Part shown: one piece after another, positions 1 through 18,581 of the stretch
Layout of the letters: every line of letters starts with the position of its first letter
How positions within the stretch are numbered: the first letter of the stretch is position 1
DNA from: Desulfobulbus propionicus DSM 2032
GTDB lineage: Bacteria; Desulfobacterota; Desulfobulbia; Desulfobulbales; Desulfobulbaceae
Direction: 5' to 3'
DNA length: 32,000 nucleotides
Assembly: GCF_000186885.1 (NCBI RefSeq)
Contig: NC_014972.1
Span: 3,300,001-3,332,000 of the forward strand
Program-made: the position numbers and the translations under genes
The notes under the pieces: generated by a model
What the model was told of the DNA's origin: nothing
The model's input: only the letters and a program-made list of their open reading frames with translations
The model's database searches: none

Positions 1-1
1 C

Positions 2-1144
2 TGGATCCTGCGGGTGACGATCAACCTGAAGAACATCGACGACATCGTCCATAAGGCGTGGATCGGCACCCTGAGTGATGCCTACATCGTCAACGGCAAG
101 AATATCCTCCAGACCAGGCCGCGCTTCGGCGGCGACTTCCTTGAACCCGCCGGTGGACCGGATTTTTCTTCAACCGTGGCCACCAAGATCTCCCGACTCG
201 CCTATAAAGGCAGCGAGGCGTTCTACGCCGCCATTCCCGTCGCCAACACCAAGTGGGTGCTGGTGATCAAGGAAAATCCCGATGAAATTCTTTCCCCGCT
301 GCAAAAGGGCAAATATTGGATGGCCTTCCTTTCGCTGCTGGGCTTGACCATCATCGCCACCGGCGCCGCCTTGTTCACCAACACCCTGATCAACCGCATC
401 GAGGAAACGGATCGCGAGAATGCCGCCAATTCCGATATGCTGCTCCAGGCCAACAAGATGATCGCCCTCAGCAAGATGGCTGCGGGCATCGCCCATGAGG
501 TCAACAATCCCCTGGCTTCGATTTCCGAAAAGGCTGGTTGGATGAAAGACCTGCTTGCCGAAGAGGATATCGCCGCCAGCCCCAATTTCGCCGAGTTCAG
601 TGAATCGATCGACAAGATCGAGTATCATGTCGACAGGGCAAGAAAAATAGTTCACAACCTGCTTGGTTTTGCCCGAAGAATGGAACCAGCCAAAGAGAAG
701 ATCAACATCAACAACCTGCTCGACGAAACGACCGGATTGCTGGAAAACGAGGCCCGGTATGTCAACATCCTCATCAAAAAGCAGTATGCGGAAAATGTCC
801 CGGTGATCACCAGCGACCTGTCCCAGATCCAGCAGGTGGTGCTCAACCTGCTCAACAATGCCATCGACGCCATCGGCAGTGACGGCACGATCACTGTCGG
901 CTCGCGCTATCTTGAGGACACCGACCAGGTGGAGCTGTGGGTCGCCGATACCGGCAAGGGCATACCTGAAGCCGAGCAGAGCAAGATCTTCGAACCGTTC
1001 TTCACCACCAAGGCTGTTGGCAAGGGCACGGGCCTTGGACTTTCCATTTCATACAGCATTATCGAAAAGCTGGGCGGGAAAATGCGGGTTCAGAGCAAGG
1101 TAGGCGAGGGAACGATGTTCACCATTCTTCTTCCGAAAAATTAA
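2..1144 (+). CDS. Sensor histidine kinase, 5'-truncated by window edge (paralogue 1 of 3)
   Basis: The frame is open to the window edge with no upstream stop. H-box [16 protein letters not shown]-box [13 protein letters not shown]1 DTGKGIP, F/G2 [22 protein letters not shown] segment [20 protein letters not shown]. The N-terminal part ([21 protein letters not shown]) aligns with the distal periplasmic region of the kinases at 1653 and 10053. Confidence 0.9.
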
Positions 1145-1150: not shown

Positions 1151-1537
1151 ATGATGGATACGTTGCGGGTTTTATTTGTGGATGACGAGGATGATTTTCG
1201 GGAAACCATTGTCAAAAGGCTGAATGCAAGAAAAATCCAGGCCATGGGTGCCGAAAGCGGTTTCAAGGCCCTGGAAATTCTTAAAGACCACGATTTTGAC
1301 GTCATGGTGCTGGACGTCAAGATGCCGGGCATGGACGGGATTGAAACCCTGCGGCACGTGAAGAAGATGAAACCGGAGATCGAGGTCATCATGCTCACCG
1401 GTCATGCCTCGGTGGAGTTTGGCCTCAAGGGCATGCAGCTCGGTGCCTTTGACTATGTGATGAAACCGGCGCCGCTCAACGAACTGCTCGACACCATCGG
1501 TCAGGCCTACAACAAGAAACGTGGCGTGATTCACTGA
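1151..1537 (+). CDS. Single-domain response regulator (receiver only, CheY-like)
   Basis: 128 aa. Has DDE acidic pocket (VLFVDDEDD), phospho-acceptor context VMVLDVKMPGMDG, LTGHAS, and GAFDYVMKP (conserved Lys). No output domain. Starts 7 nt after the kinase stop. Confidence 0.9.
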   Translation: MMDTLRVLFVDDEDDFRETIVKRLNARKIQAMGAESGFKALEILKDHDFDVMVLDVKMPGMDGIETLRHVKKMKPEIEVIMLTGHASVEFGLKGMQLGAFDYVMKPAPLNELLDTIGQAYNKKRGVIH

Positions 1538-1652: not shown

Positions 1653-3443
1653 ATGAGAGTCTGGGATACAAGTCATCTGCTCGATGATATACCGGCCAGC
1701 AAAACCGCTTCCACCGAGCATGTCTACGACTATACCGACAGTCAGGCCAACCTGAACCGCATTCGACAGCACTTCAAACAGCTCCAGACCCGGTTGATCC
1801 TGGGCTTGGTGGTCGGCTTTCTGCTGCCCAACGCCCTGCTTTCCGCCTACTTTCATTACCAGTTTGCCCATACCCTGAAAAACAGCGCCAAGCTCAATCT
1901 GATCGCGGTGGCGGAGAGCCAGAAAAACACTATCGATCTCTACCTGCAGGAACGGCTGGTCAATCTGTACAACCTGTTCCACAGCAAGGAATTCACCCTG
2001 TCGCCCACCCAGGCGCACATGGACAATTCGCTGAGCAGTCTCAAACACTTCAACGACGGCTTTGTCGATGTCGGTTTTTTAAATCCCAACGGCATCCAGA
2101 TCGGCTACGCTGGGCCCTTTGCCTCGCTGCTTGGCAAGGATTACAGCAAGGAGGACTGGTACCAGAGGCTGCTCAAGGAAAACAAGAGCTATCTGATCAG
2201 CGACATCTATACGGGATTTCGCAATGTTCCCCATTTCACCATCGCCACCAAGCAGGTTTTCGACGGCCGCACCTATGTGATGCGCGCCTCCTTGGATCCA
2301 GACAAGCTCTACCTGTACCTGCGCGCCATCAGCCAAGGCAAGGGGGTGGAGTCGACCCTGGTCAACCGTCAAGGGCAGTACCAGGTGGTCGATCCCGGCC
2401 GCAGCCAACTTCCTGGGAGCAGCGACTATCTGCCGCCGGTAACCGCCGCTTCCGGGGTGGAAGAGTTGGTGCTCAACGATCAGAACATGCTGGTGGCCTA
2501 TTCCTGGCTCAAGGAAACGCCTTGGGCCCTGCTGGCCATGCAGCCGGTGGCGGTGGCCCAGGCCGGCATGATCCGAGCACGACTGGTGCTGACCATCGGC
2601 CTGATTGGCGTTAGCCTGATTGTTTCGGTCATCATTTTTTTCACCATCAAGAAACTGGTCCGCCGCGCACGGCGCATGGCGGAAAAAGGGCAGCAGCTGC
2701 AGGAGATGCTTGCCCATGCCTCCAAGCTCGCATCCATCGGCGAACTGGCCGCAGGCGTGGCCCACGAGATCAACAACCCCCTGGCGATCATCATGGCCAC
2801 CAGCGGCGTGATCCGCGATATGCTGAACCCCGAGTTCGAACTCGATCACAGCCCGGAGGCCATCTGCAAGGAGCTCTCGGTCATCGACGCGGCTGCCACC
2901 CGAGCCAAGGGCATTACCCGCAAACTCCAGGACATGGGCAAGAGCCGGGTTCCCTGCACGGTGGCATGCGATGTCAACGCCTTGGTCGAAGAGGTGGTGA
3001 CCCGACTGAAAAAAGTCGAATTCAAGCCCAAACACTTCGACGTGCAGTGCCAGCTTGCCCCCGATCTGCCCCACATCTTAGCTGAACCAGAGCCGTTGCG
3101 GCAGGTGTTCGCCAACATTCTGATCAATGCCGGTGACGCCATTGCCGACAAGGGGACCATCACCATAGCCACCGAGGCCAAGGATGGCATGGTGTTGGTC
3201 ACCATCGCCGATACCGGCAAGGGGATCCCGCCGGAGAACCTCCAGCGGATTTTCAACCCGTTTTTCACCACCAAGGGCGGGGGCAAGGGAACCGGCCTGG
3301 GCTTGAGCATTGCGGCAAGCATCGTCAAATACCTTGGTGGCACGATCAAGGTCAACAGTATCCCGGGAACAGGCAGTTCCTTTACCATCCTGCTCCCGGT
3401 CAACGAGCAGGCCAAGAAAACGATCAAGCAACACGACAAGTAA
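1653..3443 (+). CDS. Sensor histidine kinase with periplasmic Cache-type (probably double-Cache) domain (paralogue 2)
   Basis: 596 aa. Two TM segments (LILGLVVGFLLPNALLSAYF and LVLTIGLIGVSLIVSVIIFFTI) flank a ~240 aa domain with the Cache-like core YLISDIYTGFRNVPHFTIATKQV. H-box AAGVAHEINNPLAII; HATPase boxes [36 protein letters not shown]-like GGAGAGG upstream of the ATG. Confidence 0.9.
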   Translation: MRVWDTSHLLDDIPASKTASTEHVYDYTDSQANLNRIRQHFKQLQTRLILGLVVGFLLPNALLSAYFHYQFAHTLKNSAKLNLIAVAESQKNTIDLYLQERLVNLYNLFHSKEFTLSPTQAHMDNSLSSLKHFNDGFVDVGFLNPNGIQIGYAGPFASLLGKDYSKEDWYQRLLKENKSYLISDIYTGFRNVPHFTIATKQVFDGRTYVMRASLDPDKLYLYLRAISQGKGVESTLVNRQGQYQVVDPGRSQLPGSSDYLPPVTAASGVEELVLNDQNMLVAYSWLKETPWALLAMQPVAVAQAGMIRARLVLTIGLIGVSLIVSVIIFFTIKKLVRRARRMAEKGQQLQEMLAHASKLASIGELAAGVAHEINNPLAIIMATSGVIRDMLNPEFELDHSPEAICKELSVIDAAATRAKGITRKLQDMGKSRVPCTVACDVNALVEEVVTRLKKVEFKPKHFDVQCQLAPDLPHILAEPEPLRQVFANILINAGDAIADKGTITIATEAKDGMVLVTIADTGKGIPPENLQRIFNPFFTTKGGGKGTGLGLSIAASIVKYLGGTIKVNSIPGTGSSFTILLPVNEQAKKTIKQHDK

Positions 3444-3453
3444 ACGCACCATT

Positions 3454-3888
3454 ATGGAAAAAAAACAAAGAGGATTTAAAGTTTTACTGGTTGACGACGA
3501 GGATATTTTCCGTGAGGCCACGGCCCGCCAGCTGACCGTGCGCGGTTTTGTCGTGCTCACGGCCGCCAGCGGTGAGGAAGCGCTCACTGTGGTCAGCAGC
3601 GATCCGCCCGAGGTGGTGGTGCTCGACCAGGAAATGCCTGGCCTGCATGGATCGGATACCTTTGTAGAAATCAAGAAGATCAACCCACTGATCGAGGTGA
3701 TCATGCTCACCGGCAACACCAGTGTCGACAACGCCATCGAACTGATGCGGCTGGGGACCTTCGACTACCTGATGAAACCGATCAACATCGACGAACTGCT
3801 CTATAAGATCGAAGATGCCTACACCCGGAAAAAACTCAACGAAAAGCAGCAGCGTGAAACGGGCCAAGAGAAGCCGATGCGAGCTTAA
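3454..3888 (+). CDS. Single-domain response regulator (receiver only)
   Basis: The ORF-track frame 3310..3888 overlaps the kinase. The internal ATG at 3454 lies 11 nt after the kinase stop and gives MEKKQRGFKVLLVDDEDIF.. Phospho-acceptor VVVLDQEMPG, LTGNTS, GTFDYLMKP. No output domain. Confidence 0.85.
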   Translation: MEKKQRGFKVLLVDDEDIFREATARQLTVRGFVVLTAASGEEALTVVSSDPPEVVVLDQEMPGLHGSDTFVEIKKINPLIEVIMLTGNTSVDNAIELMRLGTFDYLMKPINIDELLYKIEDAYTRKKLNEKQQRETGQEKPMRA

Positions 3889-3928
3889 GGTCCGCCACTT
3901 TCATCAGTGCTGCCGATAAAGGCGATTC

Positions 3929-6562
3929 ATGCTGAAAAAACTGGCCGCGTTTTCTAAAAAATTTTTTTTCTTCCATCAGGAGGAAAGCGACCCGGTACTG
4001 GAAGCCGAAGAGGTGGAGGCGCTCCGGTTGACGTTCAAGTCCCGGTATCACAGCTTCAAACTGTTGCTGGCCGCCAACACCAGAATATTGGAGGCCATGG
4101 CCGAAATTGAACGGGCACTGCAGGGCAACGAGCCGTTCAGCATGTCGTTCGTCCAAACCCACTGCACCTCGATTTCGGTCAATGTTTTCCGGATGATCAA
4201 TGACATGGAAAACATCGCCCCGGGCAAATACACGGCCTTGCGCGACAGTTTTCTTGCTATCCAGAAACGGATCGATGCCCTGCTTGGCTCGAAGAAGCAG
4301 ATCTCCGATACCCGTCTCGTCATCCCTCTTGAAGCAGTCAACAGCGACATGACCGATCTGGTCGGCGGCAAGATGGCCAACCTGGGCGACATTAAAAACC
4401 GGCTGCACATGCATGTGCCCAGCGGCTTTGTGATCACCGCCGCCGCCCACGAGATGTTCATGCAGGCTGACGGTCTGCAACGCGAAATCGACCGGCTTTT
4501 TCAGGTGGCCGGTTCCGACGAAGACCGCAATCTTGATCTGGTCAGTTCCCAGATCCGGCAGCTGATCATGTCGGCCGAGGTGCCGGAACCTATTTATCTG
4601 GCTGTGGTCGAGGCCTACACCCGGATGAAGACCGCCAACAACGGTCAGGATATCCGGATGGCGGTCCGCAGCAGCGCCTTTGGCGAGGATGCGGAAAACA
4701 CCTCCTTTGCCGGCCAGTACCGTAGCGAGCTCAACGTTGGTTTCTCTCAGTTCTTCTACTATTACAAGCAGGTCATGGCCTCCAAGTACAGCGTCCAGGC
4801 CATCGCCTACAAACTCAGCCGAGGTTTCCGTGACGAGGATATCGCCATGTGCGTCGGCTGCCTGGCGATGATCGACGCCGTTGCCGGCGGGGTGATCTAC
4901 ACCCGCAACCCTTTGGACACCAAGGATGACGCCATCTACATCAACTCGGTCTGGGGCCTGCCCAAGGCAGTGGTTGACGGCGATGCCTTGTGCGACTTGT
5001 TCGTGGTTGCCCGGGACGACGCCCTGACCATCCTCCGCCGGGACGTGCGGGAAAAAGGCTACCGGATCGACTCATTCGAGGAGGAGGGGTGTATCCGCAC
5101 CGCGACCGGGGACGAACAACGGACCATGCCCTCACTGACCGACGAACAGGTGCAGTTGCTCGCCGATCATGCGGTTCGGATCGAGCAGTACTATGAAACA
5201 CCCCAGGATATCGAATGGGCCATCGACACCGACGGCAAGGTGTACATCCTCCAATCCCGCCCCCTGCAGCAGATGGAATCCATCCTGCCTGGCCCTGACC
5301 TGGATCTCAAGCGGTTCGAATCGTCCCTGCTGGTTGAGGGGGGAATCAACGCCAGTCCCGGCGTGGCCTGCGGCAAGGTGTTCAAGGTGGCCAAGAAGGT
5401 CGATATCCTTCAGTTTCCCGAAGGCGCGGTCCTGGTGGTGGAACAGGCGCTGCCCACCTGGGCGCCGCTAGTGGCCCGAGCCGCTGCGGTGGTCTCCGAG
5501 CAGGGTGGATTTGCCGGCCATCTGGCCAACGTGGCCAGGGAATTCGGCATTCCCGCAGTCTTTGGGGTCAGCGGGGCCATGGCCAAGATGCACAATGGCG
5601 ATGCGGTCACCGTGGCAGCCGATCTTGGCCAAGTCTATCTGGGAAACATCGCCCCTCTGCTCGAATGGACGAGGCCAGAACCAAAACTGATGCTGGGCAG
5701 TCCGGTGTACGAATCGCTCAAGGAAGTCAGCCGCCATATCATCCCCTTGCATCTTCTCGATCCGGAATCACGCGATTTCGTGCCCCAGAATTGTCAAACC
5801 TTCCACGACATCACCCGTTTCATCCACGAAAAGTCGGTGTATGAAATGTTCAATTTCGGCAAGGATCACAGTTTTTCCGAACGCTCCAGCAAACAGCTGT
5901 ACTACCGGGTGCCGATGAATTGGTGGATACTCAACCTGGATGACGGTTTCACCCACGAAATCCACAGCAAATACGTTAAGTTGGAGGACATCGCCTCCAT
6001 CCCGATGCTTGCCTTCTGGGAGGGCTTTGCCGCCATTCCCTGGGATGGCCCGCCGGCCATGGACGGCAAGGGCATGACCTCGATCATGTTCCGTTCGACC
6101 ATGAACACCGCCCTGGTTCCGGGCATCAAATCCAAGTACGCCGATCGCAATTATTTCATGGTGTCCAGAAACTACTGCACCCTCAGTTCCCGCCTGGGAT
6201 ATCACTTTTCCACCATGGAGGCCATGGTCAGCGAGCGCTCGGCGGAAAACTATCTTGGCTTCAAGTTCAAGGGCGGTGCCGCCGATTTCGAGCGCTGTCT
6301 GGGCCGGGTCCATTTCATTCGCGAGATCCTCGAGCGCTACGGCTTCCGCGCCATGGTCAACGGCGACAACCTTGACGCCCGCATGGAGGGCCATGACATG
6401 GATTACATGCTCAGCCGCCTGAAAATCCTGGGGTACCTGACCCTCCACACGCGGCAACTCGACATGATCATGAACAACAGCGCCTTGGTCGGCTATTACA
6501 TGAATAAGCTCACCAAGGACATTGATTCACTGCTGCAGGAGCAGTACCTCTGCACGGCGTGA
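3929..6562 (+). CDS. PEP synthase/PPDK-like dikinase-family protein: ATP-grasp + swivelling phosphohistidine domain + unassigned C-terminal domain (paralogue A)
   Basis: 877 aa. PPDK_N hallmarks VGGKMANLGDIKN, VPSGFVITA, MAVRSSAFGEDAENTSFAGQY, VWGLPKAVVDG, PQDIEWAIDTDGKVYILQSRP. Mobile domain GGFAGHLANVAREFGIPAV with the catalytic-position His (codon 5519-5521). The C-terminal ~290 aa lack the PEP/pyruvate TIM-barrel motifs I know (no NDLTQ-type motif). Confidence 0.8.
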   Translation: MLKKLAAFSKKFFFFHQEESDPVLEAEEVEALRLTFKSRYHSFKLLLAANTRILEAMAEIERALQGNEPFSMSFVQTHCTSISVNVFRMINDMENIAPGKYTALRDSFLAIQKRIDALLGSKKQISDTRLVIPLEAVNSDMTDLVGGKMANLGDIKNRLHMHVPSGFVITAAAHEMFMQADGLQREIDRLFQVAGSDEDRNLDLVSSQIRQLIMSAEVPEPIYLAVVEAYTRMKTANNGQDIRMAVRSSAFGEDAENTSFAGQYRSELNVGFSQFFYYYKQVMASKYSVQAIAYKLSRGFRDEDIAMCVGCLAMIDAVAGGVIYTRNPLDTKDDAIYINSVWGLPKAVVDGDALCDLFVVARDDALTILRRDVREKGYRIDSFEEEGCIRTATGDEQRTMPSLTDEQVQLLADHAVRIEQYYETPQDIEWAIDTDGKVYILQSRPLQQMESILPGPDLDLKRFESSLLVEGGINASPGVACGKVFKVAKKVDILQFPEGAVLVVEQALPTWAPLVARAAAVVSEQGGFAGHLANVAREFGIPAVFGVSGAMAKMHNGDAVTVAADLGQVYLGNIAPLLEWTRPEPKLMLGSPVYESLKEVSRHIIPLHLLDPESRDFVPQNCQTFHDITRFIHEKSVYEMFNFGKDHSFSERSSKQLYYRVPMNWWILNLDDGFTHEIHSKYVKLEDIASIPMLAFWEGFAAIPWDGPPAMDGKGMTSIMFRSTMNTALVPGIKSKYADRNYFMVSRNYCTLSSRLGYHFSTMEAMVSERSAENYLGFKFKGGAADFERCLGRVHFIREILERYGFRAMVNGDNLDARMEGHDMDYMLSRLKILGYLTLHTRQLDMIMNNSALVGYYMNKLTKDIDSLLQEQYLCTA

Positions 6563-6664: not shown

Positions 6665-7039
6665 ATGAGAAAGGTTTTAAGCATGCTATCCATGGCGACG
6701 TACTTCTTGCTTGCCGTCGGGGCCCTGGCCGCTGACAAGGCAACCATCAAAAAGAATGTCGATGACATGGTGGCGGCCATCAACAGCGGCAAGGAGGCAA
6801 CCAGCTACAGAGCCGATACCTATACCCCGTATGCGTTCATTATGGAGCCGAACGGCAAACTGATCGTCCACCCGTATCTCGCCGGAGAATATCTCCAGGA
6901 GAAAGCGGAACCCATCTACAAAGCCCTGCAACAGGCGACCATGGAAGGGACCTGGGTGTCCTATCTCTGGAAAGGTGCGCTCAAGGAGACCTATGTGCGG
7001 CGGACCAAAAGCAATCTGACCGTCGGCAGCGGCTACTGA
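6665..7039 (+). CDS. Secreted/periplasmic single-Cache (sCache_2-like) domain protein
   Basis: 124 aa. Signal peptide MRKVLSMLSMATYFLLAVGALAA. Cache-like core YAFIMEPNGKLIVHPYLAGEYL .. GTWVSYLWKG..KETYVRR..LTVGSGY. Strong SD GGAGG 6-10 nt upstream of the ATG. Confidence 0.7.
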   Translation: MRKVLSMLSMATYFLLAVGALAADKATIKKNVDDMVAAINSGKEATSYRADTYTPYAFIMEPNGKLIVHPYLAGEYLQEKAEPIYKALQQATMEGTWVSYLWKGALKETYVRRTKSNLTVGSGY

Positions 7040-7221: not shown

Positions 7222-9837
7222 ATGTCCACCATTCTTGGTAATCTCAGACAGCTCTTCAAGGATTTCCGCGCCAGGAGCGGCTTGACGCTCCCCGTCAGCC
7301 CTGTGGGAATGAACGCCCTGTTCCGCTTCCGCTACACGCTGTTCAAGGAATTGCTGGTGGCCAACTCCGAGCTGCTCACCGTCCTGTCGGACATGGATGA
7401 AAAACTCAAAGGCGAGACGATCTTCGGCCTGTCCTACATCAACAACCAGGTCAACAAGGCCCTCAAACACGCCTTTCAGATGGTCAAATGCCTCAATGTC
7501 ATGTCCGGCGGCGCTTACCGCGAGCTCTACAACGCGTTGGAGCGGATCAACGAACAGATCAAGACCATCGTCAATGAGCGCAAAGTGGATCATGCCCCTC
7601 ACGCGGTCATGCCCTATGACCAGATCCACCTCAAGGACAGCGACTGGGCCGGCGGCAAGAACGCCAATCTGGGGGAGATCAAAAACTGCCTCAATATCCC
7701 GGTGCCCGAGGGATTTGCCATCACCACCAAAGGTTTTCACCTCTTCTTTGAGCACAACGACCTCAAAGAAGAGATTATCAAACAGAAAAACCTGATTTAT
7801 ATCAATGAATTTGACTTACTGAACAGCCTCAGCGCCGAGACGCTGCAACTGGTCCGTTCCAAACCCCTCCCGCCGGAACTGGAAGCAGAGATTCACGCCG
7901 CCTGCACCCGGCTCTGGGGAAATGACCAGGAGGTCCTGGTGGCGATGCGCAGCAGCGCGGTAGGTGAAGACGGCGACATTTCCTATGCCGGCCAGTACCT
8001 CACCCTGCTGGGGGTAACCCGGGACGAGATCTGCGAGGCCTACAAATCGATCATCGCCAGTCTTTACTCCGCCCGCTCCATTTCCTATCGCACTTCCAAA
8101 GGGGTGTATGACGAGGATCTGGCCATGGCCGTGGCCTGCCTCAAGATGGTCGACTCGCGGGCCAGCGGTGTCCTGTACACCCGCCATCCCTATGACATCA
8201 CCAACGAGCATATCTTGATCAACGCCGTCTGGGGCTTGGGTCCCTATGCGGTGGACGGGGTGGTAACGCCGGACGTTTATACCGTGTCCAAGGACGACGC
8301 TCTGACCCTGCTGGAAAAAAATATTTCACTCAAGCCGGTGCAGTTGGTGCTCAACCAAACAGGTGGTGTCGACGAGCGGCCCGTCCCCGCCGAACAGCAG
8401 CAGGCTGCCTGTCTCAGCGAGGCGCAGATCCGTCAGCTGGCTGGCTATGGCGTTGCCCTGGAAAAACATTACAAATGTCCCCAGGATGTTGAATGGGCAC
8501 TGGCTCCGGACGGCAACCTCCTCATTCTCCAATCGCGGCCGCTGAAGATTCAAAGCCCGAAAAATTTCTGTCTGCTCAAGGCCCCCCCCCTGGAGGGGTA
8601 TTCCCTGATCATCGACAATGCTGAAATTGCCTCGCAGGGAGTCGGCACCGGACCGGCCTTTCCGATCCAGACGGTGGAAGACCTGGTCAATTTCCCGCAA
8701 GGAGGGGTGTTGCTTGCCCGCCATTCATCCCCGGAATATGTGGTGGTGATGCGCCACTGCAGCGCCATCATCGTCGAAGCCGGCAGCGTCAGCGGCCACA
8801 TGGCGGCCTTGGCTCGAGAATTCAATGTCCCCACCATTATCTGCGCCCAACCGATCCTGGAACGAATCGCCCAGGGGACGGTGCTGACCGTTGACGCCTT
8901 TACCGGGCGGGTCTATGCAGGCACGGTTCATGAACTGCTGGCCGCGATCAAGAAGGATGACGCCCACATGAAGGGTACCCCGGTCTATGAACAGCTGCAG
9001 CGGATTGCCCAACATGTCATTCCGCTCCATCTGGTCAACCCGGCTGCCCCGGAATTCACCGCCGCAGGGTGCACCACCCTGCACGACCTTGCCCGCTTCT
9101 GCCACGAATTTTCGTACAAGGAGATGTTTCAAATAAGTGATTTGGCATCGAAGTTCCATGGATGGTCGATCAAGTTGGATGCGCCCCTGCCTATGGACAT
9201 CCACCTGATCGATCTCGGCAATGGTCTGAAGGCAGAGGCGACGGCGAAATGGAACGCGGTCAAGGTCGAGGAGATCGCCTCTGTGCCATTTTCGGCGCTG
9301 TTGCAGGGCATGCTCAACAAAAACGTGCACGGCCTGGAACCGCGGCCGGTCAACCTCTCCGGTCTGCTGTCGGTGATGCGCGAACAGACCTTGGCCCCCG
9401 GACACGTGGGCGAACGTTTCGGTGACCGCAGTTACGCCATCATCGCCGACAAATACCTCAACTTCAGCTCGCGGGTGGGCTATCATTACAGCGTCATCGA
9501 CGCCTACTGTGGCGAGACCATCAACAAAAATTATATCACCTTCACCTTCAAGGGGGGAGCGGCCGACGACGTTCGCAAGAACAGGCGGGTCCGGGCCATC
9601 TCCCTGATCCTCGATCGGGAGGGGTTCAAGGTCAACGTCAAGGCCGACAAGGTCGATGCCCGGCTGCAGAAGTATCCCAAATCCTATATTGAAAGCCGGA
9701 TGGATATCCTTGGGCGATTGCTGATTTTTACCCGCCAGCTCGACATGCTCATGACCACGGAAAAAAGCGTGGAATGGGTGGCGGAAAACTTCGTGGCCGG
9801 CAACTACAAGCTGACAACGCCTCCCCTGGAACAATGA
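7222..9837 (+). CDS. PEP synthase/PPDK-like dikinase-family protein (paralogue B)
   Basis: The ORF-track start 7207 is TTG. The ATG at 7222 is preceded by GGAGAAAG and is preferred. Motifs AGGKNANLGEIKN, VPEGFAITT, VAMRSSAVGEDGDISYAGQY, PQDVEWALAPDGNLLILQSRP. Mobile domain AGSVSGHMAALAREFNVPTI (His codon 8797-8799). The C-terminal domain is shared with paralogues A and C. Confidence 0.8.
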   Translation: MSTILGNLRQLFKDFRARSGLTLPVSPVGMNALFRFRYTLFKELLVANSELLTVLSDMDEKLKGETIFGLSYINNQVNKALKHAFQMVKCLNVMSGGAYRELYNALERINEQIKTIVNERKVDHAPHAVMPYDQIHLKDSDWAGGKNANLGEIKNCLNIPVPEGFAITTKGFHLFFEHNDLKEEIIKQKNLIYINEFDLLNSLSAETLQLVRSKPLPPELEAEIHAACTRLWGNDQEVLVAMRSSAVGEDGDISYAGQYLTLLGVTRDEICEAYKSIIASLYSARSISYRTSKGVYDEDLAMAVACLKMVDSRASGVLYTRHPYDITNEHILINAVWGLGPYAVDGVVTPDVYTVSKDDALTLLEKNISLKPVQLVLNQTGGVDERPVPAEQQQAACLSEAQIRQLAGYGVALEKHYKCPQDVEWALAPDGNLLILQSRPLKIQSPKNFCLLKAPPLEGYSLIIDNAEIASQGVGTGPAFPIQTVEDLVNFPQGGVLLARHSSPEYVVVMRHCSAIIVEAGSVSGHMAALAREFNVPTIICAQPILERIAQGTVLTVDAFTGRVYAGTVHELLAAIKKDDAHMKGTPVYEQLQRIAQHVIPLHLVNPAAPEFTAAGCTTLHDLARFCHEFSYKEMFQISDLASKFHGWSIKLDAPLPMDIHLIDLGNGLKAEATAKWNAVKVEEIASVPFSALLQGMLNKNVHGLEPRPVNLSGLLSVMREQTLAPGHVGERFGDRSYAIIADKYLNFSSRVGYHYSVIDAYCGETINKNYITFTFKGGAADDVRKNRRVRAISLILDREGFKVNVKADKVDARLQKYPKSYIESRMDILGRLLIFTRQLDMLMTTEKSVEWVAENFVAGNYKLTTPPLEQ

Positions 9838-10052: not shown

Positions 10053-11756
10053 ATGACCACCCGAACGTCCGAGAGGTCACCTGCCCTCAAATCTCAACCA
10101 CCGAGTACTGTTATGCGTGAAAAGCTCAAAGATTATCTTCGTTTGAAACGACTGCTTTCCGCCGGTTTTTTTACCAGCGGCATCATCCCCATTATCATCA
10201 TCGCTTCGGGTTCCATCTATAACTTCAAGCAATTGTCGATCAACGACATCGAGGTCACGGCCCGGCAGGTGGCGGAGCATCGTACCGATGTGATCAACAC
10301 CTTTCTCAACAGTCAGGTCAATTTCCTCTCCACGCTGATGAATCTTTATCCGCTGGATTATCTCGAGAATCAGGAGAACCTCAAAAACCTTTTCCTCGCC
10401 ATCTCCAAGGAGGGGCAGGAAGGAGCCATCGTCGACCTGCAGCTGATCGACACCAACGGCAAACAGCTCGCCTACGTCGGGCCCTATCAGGAGAAGGTGC
10501 AGGGCAAGGATTACAAGGATATCCCCTGGTTCAGCGAGGTATTGGTGCGCGGTACCTATGTCAGCGACGTGTTCAGCGGCTTCCGCAACTATCCCCACTT
10601 TGTCATCGCCCTCACCAATCCCCTCAAGACGTATGTACTCCGGGCGACCATTAACTCCGGCATCTTCAATTCGCTGCTCTACAGCGCGCAGATCGGTCCC
10701 AACGGCGATGCCTTCATCCTCAATTCCAACGGCGAATTCCAGACCCCGAGCCTGCAAAAAATGGATAAACTGAACGCCCTGGAGATCAAAATGCTCAAAC
10801 ACCACCCGGGGACGGAAATTTCCTCGGACGACGAATATCTCTACGCCAGCCAGTGGCTCAACGGCAACATGTGGCTGCTGGTCATCAAGACCAAGATCAC
10901 CGACTCCCTGGGCGTCTATTACAAGTACCGCAATCGCATCATCTTCATTGTCGCCGCCACCGCCGCCCTCTTTCTCTTCATCGCCAGCGGCATCAGCCGC
11001 TTCATCGTTGAACGGATGCAGCGGGCGGACCGGGAACAAACAGCGCTTGACCAGCAGATGGCCCATATTGAAAAAATGGCCAATATCGGCCGATTGGCCG
11101 CTGGCATCGCCCATGAAATCAACAACCCCCTGCAGTTGATCCAAATGCAGGCCGGCTGGATCGACGAATTGCTCCAGGAGGAAAACCCGGAACAGATCGC
11201 CAATCTGGATGAATACCGCCAATCGGTGGGCAAGATCAAACAACACGTCAATCGGGCCGGCACCATCACCCACCGCCTCCTTGGCTTTTCGCGCAAGATC
11301 AGTGCCGAATACGATGTGCAGATCAATGAGCTGATTCGGGAAACCATTTCCTTTCTGGAAAGCGAGGCCAACAGCAACAACATCACCCTCAATCTCCATT
11401 TTGACGACGCGCTGCCGGTGATCAGAACTGACGGTTCCCAGGTTCAGCAGGCCCTGCTGAACCTGATCGAGAACTCACTGGATGCGGTCGGTTCCGGCGG
11501 TCAAATCGACATCACCACCAGCCGCAGCCCCAAAGAGGTTTCCATACAAATCGCCGATAACGGTCCGGGCATCAAACCCGAGGTCCTGGCCAAGATCTGG
11601 GAACCGTTTTTCACCACCAAGGAACCCGGCAAGGGAACCGGACTGGGACTGTCGATCTGCAGCGACATCGCCCATAAACTCGGTGGGGAAATCATCGCCG
11701 AAAATCGGCCGCAGGGCGGCGCGCAGTTCACCCTCAAACTGCCCATTCGGGGCTGA
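10053..11756 (+). CDS. Sensor histidine kinase with periplasmic Cache-type domain (paralogue 3)
   Basis: Start is ambiguous: GTG 10005, ATG 10053 or ATG 10113. TM segments FFTSGIIPIIIIASGSIY and IIFIVAATAALFLFIASGI. Cache-like core YVSDVFSGFRNYPHFVIALTNP. H-box AAGIAHEINNPLQLI; [37 protein letters not shown]. Confidence 0.9.
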   Translation: MTTRTSERSPALKSQPPSTVMREKLKDYLRLKRLLSAGFFTSGIIPIIIIASGSIYNFKQLSINDIEVTARQVAEHRTDVINTFLNSQVNFLSTLMNLYPLDYLENQENLKNLFLAISKEGQEGAIVDLQLIDTNGKQLAYVGPYQEKVQGKDYKDIPWFSEVLVRGTYVSDVFSGFRNYPHFVIALTNPLKTYVLRATINSGIFNSLLYSAQIGPNGDAFILNSNGEFQTPSLQKMDKLNALEIKMLKHHPGTEISSDDEYLYASQWLNGNMWLLVIKTKITDSLGVYYKYRNRIIFIVAATAALFLFIASGISRFIVERMQRADREQTALDQQMAHIEKMANIGRLAAGIAHEINNPLQLIQMQAGWIDELLQEENPEQIANLDEYRQSVGKIKQHVNRAGTITHRLLGFSRKISAEYDVQINELIRETISFLESEANSNNITLNLHFDDALPVIRTDGSQVQQALLNLIENSLDAVGSGGQIDITTSRSPKEVSIQIADNGPGIKPEVLAKIWEPFFTTKEPGKGTGLGLSICSDIAHKLGGEIIAENRPQGGAQFTLKLPIRG

Positions 11757-12131: not shown

Positions 12132-12683
12132 ATGACCAACGGAACCCGACCAGAACCCCATAACGATCTTGAATATCTTGATCTGGAACAGGCGGCAGTG
12201 ATCTGCTCTGTTTCGGATGAGCGATTCGGCAAGTGGATCGACAAGGGGGTCATTCCGGTGTTCGAGGTCAACGGCAAGAAGCTGATTCACTCCCATGACC
12301 TGATCCATCATCTCGTCCGTCACAACATTCCCATCCCCGACAGGCTGTTGCAGGGAAAAAACAGCAGGAAAATCCTGTTCGTCCTCACCGACGAGACCGT
12401 GCCCCACGCGGTGACCACCGAAGTCATCTGGGCGCTCTACAAATTGCGCAAGCGAACATCCTACATCTTTGATTTTGTCCGATTTGACAACAATATCGAA
12501 TTAAAGATCATCACCTTTTGTCCGGATGTGATCATCCTGTTGCAGGAAGATTCGACCAACCAAGGCCCAGAAACGACCATCCGCAAGATAGTCAACGGGT
12601 CAATCCCGCTCTTCACGTTGACCACCGACCGGAACATCGAGCTTGACACGTTTCTCAGCGAGTTAGCAGGAGGCCGACCGTGA
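12132..12683 (+). CDS. Helix-turn-helix (excisionase/MerR-like HTH_17-type) protein with degenerate receiver-like C-terminal domain
   Basis: 183 aa. N-terminus YLDLEQAAVICSVSDERFGKWIDKGVIPVFEVNGKKLIHSHDLIHHL resembles short HTH DNA-binding domains. The C-terminus has a beta-alpha pattern (KILFVLTDE .. PDVIILLQED .. IPLFTLTTD) like a receiver, but with Gln where the phospho-Asp would align. SD GGGAGAAG before the ATG. Confidence 0.55.
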   Translation: MTNGTRPEPHNDLEYLDLEQAAVICSVSDERFGKWIDKGVIPVFEVNGKKLIHSHDLIHHLVRHNIPIPDRLLQGKNSRKILFVLTDETVPHAVTTEVIWALYKLRKRTSYIFDFVRFDNNIELKIITFCPDVIILLQEDSTNQGPETTIRKIVNGSIPLFTLTTDRNIELDTFLSELAGGRP

Positions 12684-13079: not shown

Positions 13080-13508
13080 ATGTCACTGTATACCGTTCTG
13101 ATTGTTGACGACGAAGAGGAATTCCGTGAAATGACGGTCAAAAGACTGAGCAAACGCGATCTCGAATGTGACAGCGCCCCCGATGGTGACACTGCCCTGG
13201 AGATGATAACGAAGAAAAACTATGACGTTGTCCTGCTCGACGTCAAGATGCCGGGCAAGGACGGCATCGAAACCTTGCGCGAGATCAAGCGGATAACCCC
13301 GATGACCGAAGTGGTGATGCTGACCGGCCATGCCTCGGTGGAATCGGGCATCAATGGCATCAAGTACGGCGCGTTTGATTATTTGATGAAACCCATGGAA
13401 CTCGATCCGCTGTTTGAAAAACTCAATGCCGCCTACGAGCGGAAACGGGAACAGCAGGCCAAGATCGAAATGGCCCAGATCAAGAAAGACATGGCCCGTC
13501 CGTTCTGA
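13080..13508 (+). CDS. Single-domain response regulator (receiver only)
   Basis: 142 aa. VLIVDDEEEF, VVLLDVKMPGKDG, LTGHAS, GAFDYLMKP. SD AGGAGAA upstream. No output domain, only a short helical tail. Confidence 0.9.
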   Translation: MSLYTVLIVDDEEEFREMTVKRLSKRDLECDSAPDGDTALEMITKKNYDVVLLDVKMPGKDGIETLREIKRITPMTEVVMLTGHASVESGINGIKYGAFDYLMKPMELDPLFEKLNAAYERKREQQAKIEMAQIKKDMARPF

Positions 13509-13569: not shown

Positions 13570-14850
13570 ATGAAGTTTTTTCGTGATCTGAACCAATTCA
13601 TGGTGGCCGGGGCCAAGGCCCACGCCCGGTGGGAATTGGAAATGTCGAGCAACATCCTCAAAAGCCGCAAGCGGCTGCTGGTCCTGGGCCTGCTGCTCAT
13701 TCCCGTTTTCCTCGGCGGATACGCCTTTGCCGATGCCGTTGGCCAGGCCCTGCCCTCCTTTATCGGCGGCAAAACAGCCTATGGTCCTTCCCACTACACC
13801 AATCTCATCTTTGGCGCCTCGGTGCTGGTCGGCGTGTGCGCCGGTCTGATCACCGGCTGTATCGGTGCCGGCGGCGGCTTCATCATTGCCCCGGCCCTGA
13901 TGAGCGCCGGCGTCAAAGGTATCCTCGCGGTCGGTACCGACCTGTTCCACATCTTCGCCAAGGCGATCATGGGTTCGGTCCTGCACCGCAAGATGGGCAA
14001 CATCTCGGTATCGCTGGCCGTCACCTTCCTCATCGGCGCCATTGCCGGCTCGACCCTGGGCGGCTACATCAACCGCACCATCTATGACGCCAACCCGGTG
14101 CTGAGCGATATGTTCATCACCTCGATCTATGTCGTCATCCTGGGCTTCCTCGCCTTCTACGCGATGAGCGATTACCTCAAATCCCGCTCCAAGAAAGCGG
14201 TCATCGAGGAGGGTGCCACCAAGATCGCCGAAGAGATCCCCAACATGGGCAAACGGCTGCAGGCCATCAACATACCGCCGATGCTGACCTTCGACGAGAA
14301 CGTCACCCCCGGTGGCCGGCGGTTGTCGGCCATTTTCCTGGTCATCGCCGGTTTCATCGTCGGCATGGCAGCCTCCATCATGGGTGTCGGCGGCGGCTTC
14401 CTCACCTTCCCGATCTTTGTCTATGGTCTGGGCGTTTCCTCGATGACCACCGTCGGCACGGACATCTTCCAGATCGTGTTCACCGCCGGGTATGCCGCCA
14501 TCAGCCAGTACGCGGTGTACGGCTTCATCTTCTACACCCTGGCCATGGGCATGCTGCTCGGCTCGCTGATCGGTATCCAGATTGGCTCCATCGTCACCAA
14601 GGTCGTTCCCGGCACCACCATCCGCGGTTTCTACGCGATCACCGTTACCGCCGGTTTCCTTAACCGGGTCTGCGCCCTGCCGGAAAAACTGATGAAGATG
14701 GGCTACGTGCAATTGAGCAAGGAGTTCCTCAATATTGTCAACATGATCGGCAATATCGGCTTCTTCATCATCATCTCCACCTTCGCGGTGTGGGTCTTCT
14801 GGTGCTTTTTCACTAATCTCAAGGTCCTGAAATCAGGGGAGGCGCATTAA
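13570..14850 (+). CDS. TauE/SafE (DUF81) family anion permease, long form
   Basis: The ORF-track frame starts at 13414, but the ATG at 13570 follows AAAGGAGAAAAAA. There are two internal repeats with the family signature, GAGGGFIIAPALM and GVGGGFLTFPIFVY. Multiple TM segments and a central hydrophilic loop. Confidence 0.75.
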   Translation: MKFFRDLNQFMVAGAKAHARWELEMSSNILKSRKRLLVLGLLLIPVFLGGYAFADAVGQALPSFIGGKTAYGPSHYTNLIFGASVLVGVCAGLITGCIGAGGGFIIAPALMSAGVKGILAVGTDLFHIFAKAIMGSVLHRKMGNISVSLAVTFLIGAIAGSTLGGYINRTIYDANPVLSDMFITSIYVVILGFLAFYAMSDYLKSRSKKAVIEEGATKIAEEIPNMGKRLQAINIPPMLTFDENVTPGGRRLSAIFLVIAGFIVGMAASIMGVGGGFLTFPIFVYGLGVSSMTTVGTDIFQIVFTAGYAAISQYAVYGFIFYTLAMGMLLGSLIGIQIGSIVTKVVPGTTIRGFYAITVTAGFLNRVCALPEKLMKMGYVQLSKEFLNIVNMIGNIGFFIIISTFAVWVFWCFFTNLKVLKSGEAH

Positions 14851-14852: not shown

Positions 14853-15554
14853 ATGGCAACTTCAGCACAACTCAAGACCCGCGGGTTTCTCCTGCTGGCA
14901 TCGTTCTTCGCGATCCTGGTGGCTATTTTCATGCCGCTGTTTCCCGGAGCCCATGGCGAAAAGGTTAACGGCCTCGATTATCTCGACAATTTTTTCAACC
15001 AGCTGTCCAAGGGTTCCGCGTATTACATCCCGGAACAGATAACAAAAGCGGAACAATACAACGGTCAGCAGTTCACCACCTCGCTGAAGATGAAATCTCC
15101 GGAAGAGGCAGTCATCACCGCCAAGTTGTTCGCCGCCAATAGCATCACTGCGGTCGCAGAGGGTGACAAAGTCAAGGTCAGCGGCGATTTCGGCTCCATG
15201 ATTACCATCATGCTCAACGATGCCGATGCCATGTACAAGAACAACGGGCAGGCACTGGTCGAGAAATACGGGGTGGATGAACGCCAGACCATCTACTCCT
15301 GGTACCAGGCCCTGACCGCCATGGAGAAGGACATGACCAAGGCCGGTCAGTTCGCCCAGGCCAAGTTTGTCAAGAACTGCATGTCCAAGGCGGTCGAACC
15401 GGCTTACAACTATTACAAGGTGGAAGCCAAACCGGTGAAAGAGGAAATCTTCCTGCTCATCGCCGCCCTGGCCTTCTACGTCATCTACACCATGTGGTAC
15501 GGTTTCGGCCTGCTCTATCTGTTCGAAGGCGCGGGCATCAAGCTTGAGCATTGA
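14853..15554 (+). CDS. Hypothetical membrane protein: N- and C-terminal TM helices flanking a ~170 aa soluble domain
   Basis: 233 aa. Its ATG lies 2 nt after the TauE stop, suggesting translational coupling. TM1 FLLLASFFAILVAIFMPLF, TM2 IFLLIAALAFYVIYTMWYGFGLLYLF. I recognise no family. Confidence 0.6.
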   Translation: MATSAQLKTRGFLLLASFFAILVAIFMPLFPGAHGEKVNGLDYLDNFFNQLSKGSAYYIPEQITKAEQYNGQQFTTSLKMKSPEEAVITAKLFAANSITAVAEGDKVKVSGDFGSMITIMLNDADAMYKNNGQALVEKYGVDERQTIYSWYQALTAMEKDMTKAGQFAQAKFVKNCMSKAVEPAYNYYKVEAKPVKEEIFLLIAALAFYVIYTMWYGFGLLYLFEGAGIKLEH

Positions 15555-18163: not shown

Positions 18164-18581
18164 ACAAGCCTTCAAACTCGAAGCAGCGCTCAAGATCCAC
18201 CTGCTGCTGGTTGACGATGAATCCGACTTCAAGGAGGTCATGCAGAAACATCTGTCACGGATGGGCATCCGTCTCAGTGTCTCTGAATGTTGCCTCGATG
18301 CCTTGGAAACATTGGACGCCCATGCCATCGATGTGGTGATCATGGACATGAACATGCCGGGGATGGATGGTATCCAGTGCCTGCGCAAGATCAAGGAACG
18401 CTGGCCGCTGATCGAGGTGATCATCCTCACCGGACACGCCTCGGTCAAATCAGGCATCGAGGGCATGGAAAGCGGGGCTTTCGACTACTGCCTCAAGCCC
18501 ATCGATGTCCGCGAGCTCATCGAAAAAGTCGAACTGGCCGCAGAAAAGGCCCTGGTCAACAAAGAACAAGTCGACGGTTGA
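18153..18581 (+). CDS. Single-domain response regulator (receiver only), overlapping the upstream dikinase-like gene
   Basis: 142 aa. HLLLVDDESDF, VVIMDMNMPGMDG, LTGHAS, GAFDYCLKP. The ATG at 18153 lies inside the last codons of the upstream gene (stop 18161-18163), an 11-nt overlap. Confidence 0.9.
   Translation: MASEQAFKLEAALKIHLLLVDDESDFKEVMQKHLSRMGIRLSVSECCLDALETLDAHAIDVVIMDMNMPGMDGIQCLRKIKERWPLIEVIILTGHASVKSGIEGMESGAFDYCLKPIDVRELIEKVELAAEKALVNKEQVDG

Follow-up and report, generated by a model that had tools for sequence, protein, structure and literature searches.

The stretch of Desulfobulbus propionicus DSM 2032 DNA analyzed here (the window; 32,000 nucleotides of contig NC_014972.1) encodes three paralogous PpsA-derived dikinases, P1, P2, and P3, among genes for histidine kinases, response regulators, and membrane proteins (Table 1). 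P1 matches, at 100% identity, a D. propionicus DSM 2032 protein that bears the annotation “pyruvate, water dikinase.” The mechanical open reading frame of P2 spans 7207-9837, but the start at 7222 is the likely one; P2 is also a distinct subtype, with IDLGxGL instead of WWILNLDDGF.

Table 1. Genes and dikinase domains in the window (positions in nucleotides of the window unless given as residues)
Feature	Position	Strand	Remarks
dCache_1 histidine kinase, 3' part	1..1144	+	Full length 550 aa; starts upstream of the window
Single-domain response regulator	1154..1537	+	REC only
dCache_1-HisKA-HATPase_c histidine kinase	1653..3443	+	
Single-domain response regulator	3454..3888	+	Ends 40 nt upstream of P1
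P1, PpsA-derived dikinase	3929..6562	+	877 aa; ORF; profile, BLASTP, and AF2 evidence
P1 three-helix N-extension	aa 1-125, nt 3929-4303	+	
P1 ATP-grasp	aa 143-449, nt 4355-5275	+	
P1 swivel domain	aa 496-565, nt 5414-5623	+	His531 at nt 5519-5521 (GGFAGH)
P1 orphan C-domain	aa 580-877, nt 5666-6559	+	
Small secreted protein	6665..7039	+	124 aa; signal or TM segment at the N terminus; weak similarity to dCache_2
P2, second paralogue	7222..9837	+	871 aa from 7222; His at nt 8797-8799 (GSVSGH); C-domain nt 8953-9834
dCache_1 histidine kinase	10113..11756	+	Downstream of P2
HTH_17-type protein	12132..12683	+	183 aa
Single-domain response regulator	13080..13508	+	Heads the TauE-U233-P3 unit
TauE/TSUP-family membrane protein	13570..14850	+	426 aa; extremely conserved across 57 loci
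U233, bitopic membrane protein	14853..15554	+	
P3, third paralogue	15629..18163	+	844 aa; His at nt 17126-17128 (GSEAGH); C-domain nt 17282-18160
Single-domain response regulator	18153..18581	+	Start overlaps P3 end by 11 nt

The response regulators encoded nearby form a single paralogous family, and the DD/D/T/K phospho-acceptor residues are intact in all of them. None has a DNA-binding output domain, and they would therefore exert no direct control of transcription. The regulator immediately upstream of P1 was missing from the gene list of an earlier, preliminary description of this DNA, which was made from the sequence alone. The overlap between P3 and the response regulator gene that follows it suggests translational coupling. 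Of the smaller genes, that between P1 and P2 is conserved in Desulfobulbus relatives, while the HTH_17-type protein, the C-terminal half of which resembles a degenerate receiver domain by eye, occurs in Desulfobulbus-type loci only. U233 consists of a transmembrane segment (residues 7-36), a periplasmic domain, a second transmembrane segment (197-222), and a cytoplasmic tail ending in ...LEH. Counts of sigma54 and sigma70 promoters and of terminators within the window were at or below chance, and a PADLOC search for antiphage defense gave no match to the dikinases, TauE, or U233.

Only two domains were recognized by Pfam in the three dikinases: PPDK_N (PF01326), with E values of 2e-85 (P1), 6e-90 (P2), and 1e-66 (P3), and the PEP-utilizers mobile domain (PF00391), with E values of 2e-15 to 4e-18. 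PEP-utilizers_C (PF02896) was not matched in any of them, even at E≤1. The NCBIfam PpsA equivalog NF005057 aligned at model positions 4-466 of 798 only (345 bits versus a cut-off of 598), and TIGR01418 scored 332, under its curated threshold of 740. By BLASTP, residues 9-470 of Escherichia coli PpsA aligned with P1 130-581 at 33% identity, placing His421 opposite P1 His531, and there was no alignment outside this segment. Because the alignment stops at these limits, P1 truly has an extended N terminus (∼125 aa) and a replaced C-terminal part (∼290 aa). Identity to PpsA was 30-33% across the N-terminal two thirds of the proteins, in which an ATP-grasp and a mobile His domain, with catalytic residues conserved family-wide, are joined in one polypeptide.

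The P1 family therefore has in common with PpsA (EC 2.7.9.2) the nucleotide-binding motifs and the order of ATP-grasp followed by swivel His, but it differs in three respects. First, an unrelated ∼290-aa alpha/beta domain occupies the place of the PEP/pyruvate TIM barrel. Second, it has an additional three-helix N-terminal domain of 125 aa. Third, its catalytic His lies in an (A/T)-G-H rather than a T-C/S-H context. In these respects the preliminary description was accurate: the reading frames and His codons lie where it placed them, the ATP-grasp signature is retained, the barrel is absent, and the N-extension is lacking in E. coli PpsA. The C-terminal blocks that it reported, LHD(I/L)(T/A)RF.HE, R(L/V)GYH, FKGGAA, and TRQLDM, are all present; they are invariant in P1, P2, and P3 and conserved across the family.

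The AlphaFold2 (AF2) model of the C-domain (pLDDT 82, pTM 0.71) shows an antiparallel beta-meander together with a long helical hairpin; the eight beta-alpha units of a TIM barrel are absent. It is confident for the C-terminal half, where FKGGAAD lies between a strand and a helix that bears R789, R790, and R793. A divergent TIM barrel was rejected on this topology, on the lack of PEP-utilizers_C, and on an hhalign probability of 0.26% between the C-domain profile and the E. coli PpsA barrel; kinship with the N-terminal sensor region of the sigma54 activator was likewise rejected (hhalign probability, 0.07%). No match to the C-domain was found in Pfam, NCBIfam, PDB sequences, or by Foldseek. 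Pfam gave no consistent match for 46 C-domain members at E≤10, a PDB sequence search with two C-domain profiles returned noise only (best E, 0.023), and Foldseek against the PDB gave 0 matches at E≤1e-3. The only weak signal to recur came from four phosphagen (arginine/taurocyamine) kinase catalytic domains (∼70-83 columns each, probability 0.30-0.87, TM ∼0.19), which is a lead, not a result. The N-extension is predicted to form three long helices (pLDDT 88-98). Its Foldseek matches were nonspecific helical bundles only, with Mediator, Mrp, and CnrX on top and a best E of 0.5. No conserved His occurs in it, nor did Foldseek match it to HPt-like domains or Enzyme I, and its assignment as an HPt, Enzyme I, or other known helical domain was rejected. 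The structural comparison advised in the preliminary description was thus made on both models and assigned neither to a known fold.

Residues invariant in the C-domain comprise C622, H626-D627, R630, H633-E634, R755, H759, G782-G783-A-A, R789/R790/R793, D813, R842-Q843, and D845. This make-up of Arg, Asp/Glu, His, and Cys, together with the strand-GGAA-helix loop, supports a putative phosphoryl-transfer or anion-binding site. As the domain lacks a recognizable relative, the argument for a catalytic role is one of residue make-up only.

A C-domain profile retrieved 1455 clusters (50% identity) at E≤1e-3, with 729 matching at the stricter E≤1e-30, so that the domain is no product of chance. The family is apparently restricted to the Desulfobacterota, and its members are annotated throughout as PEP synthase or pyruvate, water dikinase. 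All members have the N-extension (gap fraction, 0.01), and essentially all full-length ones have the ∼290-aa C-domain. Loss of the catalytic His from most orthologues, which had been considered in the preliminary description, is not seen: it is kept in 98/108 diverse representatives and in 84/84 close relatives, and K148, R247, E253, D254, D427, E429, and R444 of the ATP-grasp are all intact in 93 of the 98. The remaining 10 representatives have no His, and every one of them also has damaged ATP-grasp residues, so that the His and ATP-grasp behave as one unit; about 9% of members are “dead” kinases. On the question, raised in the preliminary description, of whether the His and the C-terminal blocks co-vary, the His co-varies with the ATP-grasp residues but not with the C-domain, whose core (D627, H759, G783, R793, and D845) is invariant in 108/108 representatives, dead members included. 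Because this core persists in paralogues without the His and ATP-grasp residues, the C-domain is more than a passive acceptor site in cis. A noncatalytic role, such as binding or dimerization, would also fit its retention in members incapable of in-cis phosphorylation.

Of 82 related loci, 75 include a response regulator, about 65 a histidine kinase, and 59 both TauE and U233. Of the 84 full-length dikinase genes, 48 directly follow a U233 gene. Many clusters have more response regulators than histidine kinases, with up to three tandem response regulator genes ahead of TauE. Dead copies sit in the canonical operon position and, where context is visible, a live copy lies alongside. In one such locus (L091), the order is TauE, U233-like, dead dikinase, histidine kinase, response regulator, and live dikinase, and the end of a response regulator gene overlaps the start of a dikinase gene. 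One cluster (L084) carries a canonical PpsA with barrel beside a family member. PpsA was rejected as a regular cluster member, since it occurs only there; an ORF in a second locus (L015) is a weak barrel match. Signaling and membrane genes are conserved beside the dikinases, but no catabolic or biosynthetic, acceptor, or downstream pathway gene is conserved there in the 82 loci. The dikinases belong to a conserved module of dCache kinases, one response regulator family, and TauE-type proteins with accessories, rather than to a metabolic pathway. The proposal in the preliminary description that the exchanged third domain signifies a new phospho-acceptor substrate is thus upheld only in part: the exchange is real and the His and ATP-grasp are kept, but no acceptor gene accompanies them and the C-domain core is invariant in dead paralogues.

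When the window sequence is extended upstream (L088), the full D. propionicus cluster is seen to include a sigma54 activator along with DVU0150, TauE, and DUF4881 genes. It is homologous to the Desulfovibrio vulgaris cluster DVU0151/DVU0150-DVU0145 and opens with the same gene order. The shared order (L088, L003, and L084/L085) is a divergent sigma54 activator, DVU0150 (PF28216), TauE, DUF4881 (PF16222), unassigned proteins, and a response regulator, and a sigma54-type site occupies the same intergenic position in the D. propionicus and D. vulgaris clusters. The D. vulgaris DVU0150-DVU0145 operon is sigma54 dependent (PMC4641369) and is induced in syntrophic coculture (PMC4265775). To this DVU0150-type core, the Desulfobulbales/Desulfobacterales cluster adds dCache kinases, extra receivers, and the dikinases. 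In the published descriptions of the D. vulgaris operon, on which this comparison is based rather than on the genome, a dikinase is not mentioned (PMC4265775, PMC4641369); if D. vulgaris lacks one, the membrane module can do without it. U233 has no significant similarity to DUF4881 or DVU0150 except for a shared C-terminal tail. Literature searches on the family, on DUF4881, and on a link between dikinase, TauE, and response regulator returned nothing specific.

Several enzymes offer partial parallels. PTS Enzyme I has the same mobile phospho-His domain, and weak NCBIfam matches to it were found at P1 495-571. Enzyme I passes its phosphoryl group to a partner and couples phosphorylation to membrane transport, and it is PEP driven through a TIM barrel and contains an inserted HPr-binding helical subdomain. 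Neither the PEP-utilizers_N subdomain nor the PEP-binding barrel was detected by Pfam in P1, P2, or P3, and no Enzyme I appeared in the Foldseek results for the N-extension. Rifampin phosphotransferase (RPH; PMC4844700) and HpeHI (PMC12167813) combine ATP-grasp and swiveling-His modules with other acceptor modules and phosphorylate small molecules. HpeHI and phenylphosphate synthase are two-component aromatic dikinases. Together with RPH they illustrate a common principle, in which an ATP-grasp domain and a swiveling His work with a non-PEP acceptor module to give a phosphorylated product along with AMP and Pi (PMC4844700, PMC12167813). The analogy with RPH and phenylphosphate synthase is one of mode of action, not of membership. 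RPH has its acceptor domain between the ATP-grasp and a swivel at the C terminus, whereas in P1 the swivel is central and the new domain C-terminal; RPH models match the P1 ATP-grasp and swivel only (NF041857, 225 bits versus a cut-off of 999), and RPH structures are absent from the C-domain Foldseek matches. VadK (Rv1127c) of Mycobacterium tuberculosis is a PPDK-derived, autophosphorylating regulatory kinase without a PEP/pyruvate domain (PMC13400623). Like the P1 family, it has lost this domain; it retains ATP-dependent autophosphorylation on His and acts in regulation rather than in central metabolism (PMC13400623). Unlike VadK, which is truncated to two domains (ATP-binding and His) and occurs in the context of the methylcitrate cycle, the P1 family derives from PpsA, has gained a third domain and an N-terminal bundle, and is found with two-component systems and TauE.

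We propose that P1, P2, and P3 are active PpsA-derived swiveling-His dikinases with a nonpyruvate acceptor site, probably under the control of receivers, a reading whose chances we judge to be about even. From homology to PpsA and the conserved residues, the ATP-grasp would use ATP to release the gamma-phosphate as Pi and place the beta-phosphate on the swivel His (His531 in P1). The swivel domain would then deliver this phosphate to the C-terminal alpha/beta domain specific to the family, where the invariant residues may form a phosphate- or anion-binding, and probably metal-binding, transfer site for an acceptor other than pyruvate. In the most economical wiring, this domain might act on an anion, or on some component that the TauE module handles, as its phosphorylation target. 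It might also mediate subunit pairing; such pairing would explain why dead paralogues keep the C-domain and are encoded beside live ones. Phosphorylated receivers could conceivably switch the dikinase through its N-terminal three-helix bundle. With rather low probability, the proteins may make up a signaling or energy-coupling device of a new type, serving as ATP-to-His∼P generators plugged into the two-component network and the TauE module, either passing the phosphoryl group to a protein partner or phosphorylating an anion during transport, as a phosphorelay or group translocation system that is driven by ATP and distinct from the PTS. Such a partner might be one of the CheY-like receivers, or the C-terminal ...E-H tail that is conserved in U233 or in DVU0150-type membrane proteins.

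It is unlikely, though worth weighing, that the dikinase is instead a phosphorelay donor, i.e., an ATP-driven source of His∼P that is independent of histidine kinases and exchanges phosphoryl groups with the Asp of neighboring response regulators in either direction, with the C-domain or N-extension serving for docking. Response regulators are the most constant neighbors of the dikinases, often in excess of histidine kinases; their acceptor residues are intact, and dikinase/response regulator gene overlaps suggest translational coupling. The phospho-His of PpsA/PPDK and that of sensor kinases are, moreover, the same N-epsilon isomer. VadK provides a published precedent (PMC13400623). Yet the loci also encode, for these regulators, complete histidine kinases in which HisKA and HATPase_c are intact, no receiver domain fusion was found in the six unusually long family members scanned, and the N-extension offers neither a conserved His nor an HPt-like match. 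Docking alone, furthermore, does not account for a domain of 290 aa in which some 15 polar residues are invariant and a Gly-rich loop of the phosphate type is present.

A soluble metabolic dikinase acting on a free small molecule (for example, a carboxylate or phenolic compound), with the two-component genes only controlling transcription or being unrelated, is distinctly improbable. The polar make-up of the C-domain is compatible with it, as are the canonical PpsA in the L084 cluster and the small-molecule substrates described for RPH and HpeHI (PMC4844700, PMC12167813). Against this, the response regulators have no DNA-binding output, no catabolic or biosynthetic gene is conserved beside the dikinase in the 82 loci, and the compact TauE-U233-dikinase unit, all on one strand, speaks for a role at the membrane.

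Invariance of the C-domain core in all 108 representatives, when 10 have lost the His and ATP-grasp and dead members occupy the canonical operon position, could mean that the proteins are pseudoenzymes or scaffolds, with function residing in a binding or sensor C-domain and the dikinase part vestigial. We consider this very improbable: 91% of representatives and all 84 close relatives keep the His, 93/98 keep all seven ATP-grasp residues, and dead copies with visible context are accompanied by a live copy, all of which argues for purifying selection on catalysis. Finally, ordinary PEP synthases with a very divergent TIM barrel, as annotation and the identity of the N-terminal two thirds to PpsA might suggest, are scarcely credible: they are refuted in practice by the profile scores, hhalign, and the AF2 meander and helical hairpin, and a true PpsA with its barrel stands beside a family member in L084.

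The active, nonpyruvate dikinase that we favor has consequences for annotation. Judged from sequence and models, about 1,500 clusters (50% identity) of Desulfobacterota proteins called PEP synthase or pyruvate, water dikinase are predicted to be incapable of that reaction, and PEP synthases would therefore be overcounted in reconstructions of sulfate reducers, syntrophs, and Desulfobulbaceae. The C-domain is an unclassified fold whose polar core is invariant, which makes it an obvious subject for structural and enzymological study. Induction of the DVU0150-0145-type operon during syntrophic growth has reportedly been known since 2009, and to our knowledge the operon has never been explained. 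The genomic link reported here ties an ATP-driven phosphotransfer enzyme to this type of TauE operon and makes its role experimentally approachable, including the questions of what the enzyme phosphorylates and whether orphan receivers switch it.

The three PpsA-like dikinases of the window (P1, P2, and P3, annotated as PEP synthase or pyruvate, water dikinase) have a PpsA-derived architecture. All three reading frames exist as the preliminary description gave them, with His codons at the positions that it claimed, and the P1 product is 100% identical to the D. propionicus DSM 2032 protein annotated "pyruvate, water dikinase." In each protein, Pfam matched the PPDK_N ATP-grasp and the PEP-utilizers mobile domain only, with no match to PEP-utilizers_C even at E ≤ 1. 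Alignments to the NCBIfam PpsA equivalogs stopped after the first ~466 positions of the model, and the score of 345 bits was far below the cutoff of 598. BLASTP aligned residues 130 to 581 of P1 with residues 9 to 470 of E. coli PpsA (33% identity), placing His531 of P1 opposite His421, the catalytic residue of PpsA. Because the alignment is confined to this part of P1, the proposed N-terminal extension of ~125 aa (N-extension) and C-terminal replacement of ~290 aa (C-domain) are real, and the sequence blocks quoted in the preliminary description are invariant among the three paralogues.

The third domain is new, strongly constrained, and not a barrel. A model made with AlphaFold2 from 46 homologues (pLDDT of 82 and pTM of 0.71, with pLDDT of 85 to 98 over the last 140 residues) predicts mainly helices with short strands in the first half. 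Beyond it, four strands form an antiparallel meander, a helix and a beta-hairpin come next, and two long helices close the C terminus. A TIM barrel of the E. coli PpsA type was rejected, as hhalign gave a probability of 0.26% and the topology of the model differs; these results and the absence of PEP-utilizers_C agree with the earlier claim that the PEP-utilizer barrel is missing. A Pfam scan of the 46 members at E ≤ 10 gave no consistent match, searching PDB sequences with profiles from two alignments yielded none better than E = 0.02, and Foldseek gave no match in the PDB at E ≤ 1e-3. The only recurring Foldseek signal was a weak one to the catalytic domains of phosphagen kinases (four entries, ~70 to 83 aligned columns, best match with probability 0.87 and E = 0.16), which may serve as a lead only. 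The N-extension is predicted as three long helices (residues 26 to 64, 72 to 96, and 102 to 120; pLDDT of 88 to 98 over residues 26 to 120), and this bundle is universal in the family (gap fraction, 0.01). The positions conserved in it are largely hydrophobic (F..LL..N...L) and include no His in the family alignment, and Foldseek returned generic helical bundles only. In the searches made, no Pfam, NCBIfam, or solved-structure relative was found for either part.

An exhaustive profile search with the C-domain recovered 1455 clusters (50% identity) with a limit of E ≤ 1e-3, and 729 when the limit was tightened to E ≤ 1e-30. Among the 150 matches listed, most are 840 to 900 aa long with the C-domain at the extreme C terminus, and shorter ones resemble fragments; by source name, members belong to Desulfobulbales, Desulfobacterales, and other Desulfobacterota. 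His531 is kept in 98 of 108 aligned full-length representatives and in every one of the 84 full-length copies that the 82 closest loci contain. The ATP-grasp residues K148, R247, E253, D254, D427, E429, and R444 are all kept in 93 of the 98 His-containing representatives, and the set also carries substitutions in all 10 that lack the His. Within the C-domain, D627, H759, G783, R793, and D845 are invariant (108/108), and C622, H626, R630, H633, E634, R755, G782, R842, and Q843 each occur in >93% of members; no other part of the protein is as constrained as the C-domain. The preliminary description asked whether the His and the C-terminal blocks co-vary; among these 108 representatives, the His varies together with the ATP-binding site and independently of the C-domain. 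About 9% of representatives (P0133, P0148, P0171, P0188, P0189, P0193, P0194, P0204, P0215, and P0224) are "dead" dikinases, with the His replaced by R, L, S, or Y, damaged ATP-grasp residues, and an intact C-domain core. In one related locus (L091), a dead copy in the canonical position, a kinase-receiver pair, and then a live copy form one operon.

The cluster genes, at positions 1 to 18581 of the window, all lie on the forward strand (see table). Four mechanical ORF starts over-extend genes, and the later starts adopted here are backed by gene calls on public contigs and by family alignments. The small secreted protein between P1 and P2 (124 aa, with a signal or TM segment and a weak dCache_2-like match at E = 1e-3), kept in eight Desulfobulbus-type loci, could be a Cache-like binding protein free in the periplasm. 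The HTH protein (183 aa; N-terminal HTH_17 motif, E = 5e-4), whose C-terminal half resembles a degenerate receiver on visual inspection, occurs in Desulfobulbus-type loci only (5/82) and may be the sole DNA-binding output of the cluster.

Features of the window and of related loci (L-numbered), with supported starts
Feature	Coordinates	Strand	Remarks
dCache histidine kinase, 3' part	1-1144	+
Receiver	1154-1537	+
dCache kinase	1653-3443	+
Receiver	3454-3888	+	mechanical start 3310
P1	3929-6562	+	His codon 5519-5521 (GGFAGH)
Small secreted protein	6665-7039	+
P2	7222-9837	+	mechanical start 7207; His codon 8797-8799 (GSVSGH)
dCache kinase	10113-11756	+	mechanical start 10005
HTH protein	12132-12683	+
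Receiver	13080-13508	+
TauE (TauE426)	13570-14850	+	mechanical start 13414
U233	14853-15554	+	L-x-E-H tail, 15522-15554
P3	15629-18163	+	His codon 17126-17128 (GSEAGH)
Receiver	18153-18581	+	overlaps P3 by 11 nt
Unmatched long ORF	19079-20101
DsrE/DsrF-like protein	20202-20648
Unmatched long ORF	20973-21419
Unmatched long ORF	22065-23303
Carboxylase pair	23538-27115	+
Unmatched long ORF	27627-29000	-
c-di-AMP riboswitch	29294-29426	+
Kup-type K+ transporter ORF	29444-31399
DVU0150-like protein with L-x-E-H tail, L003	493-792
DVU0150-like protein with L-x-E-H tail, L084	9287-9583
DVU0150-like protein with L-x-E-H tail, L085	9154-9462
Canonical PpsA, L084	1947-4373	-	808 aa
sigma54-type site, L088	2012-2027		one mismatch
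Dikinase copies, L091	10001-12577 and 14799-17444		one dead, one live

Elsewhere in the window, long ORFs lie on both strands at 18600 to 23400 and 27627 to 29000, several of them lacking any match in Pfam or NCBIfam. The carboxylase pair consists of a carboxyltransferase (517 aa; Carboxyl_trans, E = 1e-189) and then, overlapping it by 4 nt, a biotin carboxylase (675 aa) with a C-terminal biotinyl domain. This acyl-CoA carboxylase/transcarboxylase pair would fit propionate metabolism via methylmalonyl-CoA in D. propionicus and is unrelated to the dikinases. The K+ transporter ORF starts 18 nt past the end of the riboswitch (Rfam RF00379, 90 bits, E = 4e-20); c-di-AMP riboswitches are known to precede K+ transporter genes.

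Across 82 related loci (contigs from one genome per species), the association of the dikinases with single-domain receivers, dCache kinases, and TauE-type membrane modules is conserved. A receiver is found in at least 75 loci, a histidine kinase (HK) in at least about 65, and TauE and the small membrane protein U233 in at least 59 each, these counts being lower bounds because many loci are short contigs. The canonical unit, on one strand, is (HK)-RR-(RR)-(RR)-TauE-U233-dikinase-(HK-RR), where RR is a receiver, and U233 is directly upstream of the dikinase gene in 48 of 84 cases. The receivers are all paralogues of a single family, 167 of them being connected by single linkage at ≥55% identity, and they retain the DD/D/T/K phospho-acceptor set; in 57 loci, TauE shows unusually high conservation. 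U233 is bitopic, and the last residue of its short cytoplasmic tail is a nearly invariant His (≥95% in 52 sequences). The unrelated DVU0150-like proteins also carry a short cytoplasmic tail right after the last TM helix, and theirs (...ELxEH) is similar to that of U233, both ending ...L-x-E-H-COOH; TauE426 ends ...GEAH. The L-x-E-H tail may serve as a docking peptide or as an acceptor peptide.

The cluster starts before the window, at positions 1 to 6072 of the upstream-extended sequence L088 (L088 coordinate minus 6072 gives the window coordinate). A divergently transcribed sigma54 activator (849 aa, N-terminal region weakly dCache_1-like at E = 0.022) comes first, followed by DVU0150-like (PF28216), TauE (351 aa), DUF4881 (PF16222), 73-aa, and 279-aa proteins. 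The divergent intergenic region holds a candidate sigma54-type site, TGGCACACGGTTTGTT, proposed from its position, as the total of such matches across the locus is not above chance. This start is syntenic with DVU0151 and the DVU0150-DVU0145 "syntrophy" operon of D. vulgaris, which is predicted to be sigma54 dependent and controlled by DVU0151 (PMC4641369) and is reportedly up-regulated during growth in syntrophic co-culture, its function being unknown (PMC4265775). P2-type members of other genera are divergent from, and adjoin, a DVU0150-TauE-DUF4881 operon. In one Desulfobacterales genome (L084), such an operon (DVU0150-TauE-DUF4881-unknown-HK-RR) has as its last gene a canonical PpsA with PEP-utilizers_C, and a P2-type dikinase is divergent from it; this PpsA may be a sign that the dikinase family descends from a PpsA that the DVU0150-TauE cluster already contained.

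We propose that P1 to P3 would autophosphorylate on the His from ATP and that the C-domain would be the site of phosphoryl transfer. The latter is suggested by its Arg, Asp/Glu, His, and Cys residues and by a strand-GGAA-helix loop followed by R789, R790, and R793, a make-up resembling the ligand sets of phosphoryl-transfer sites generally, those of PpsA and PPDK included. The receivers carry no output domain and would act on the dikinase, most plausibly via the N-terminal bundle, and the C-domain may also pair subunits, which would account for the live-dead pairs. For this composite as a whole, belief and doubt are about evenly balanced. Direct His-to-Asp phosphotransfer from dikinase to receivers is the leading rival; we regard it as rather improbable, although VadK, a PPDK-derived autokinase, is a published example of the dikinase scaffold in a regulatory role (PMC13400623). 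A free metabolic dikinase acting on a small molecule, on the model of RPH and HpeHI (PMC4844700, PMC12167813), goes with the new phospho-acceptor substrate that the preliminary description proposed; this we consider unlikely, because the surroundings hold no conserved pathway genes and the neighboring receivers cannot regulate transcription. The donor-side catalytic residues are retained, being lost together in a minority of members, and a pseudo-enzyme is very unlikely; an ordinary PEP synthase is scarcely credible.

The scaffold of P1 to P3 is known, and exchanged acceptor modules are a familiar theme in the dikinase superfamily. No paper on this dikinase family was found in the literature, and its connection with two-component systems and with the DVU0150/TauE cluster seems not to have been described. 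There is a modest chance that the family represents a new type of phosphorelay or of transport-coupled phosphorylation.
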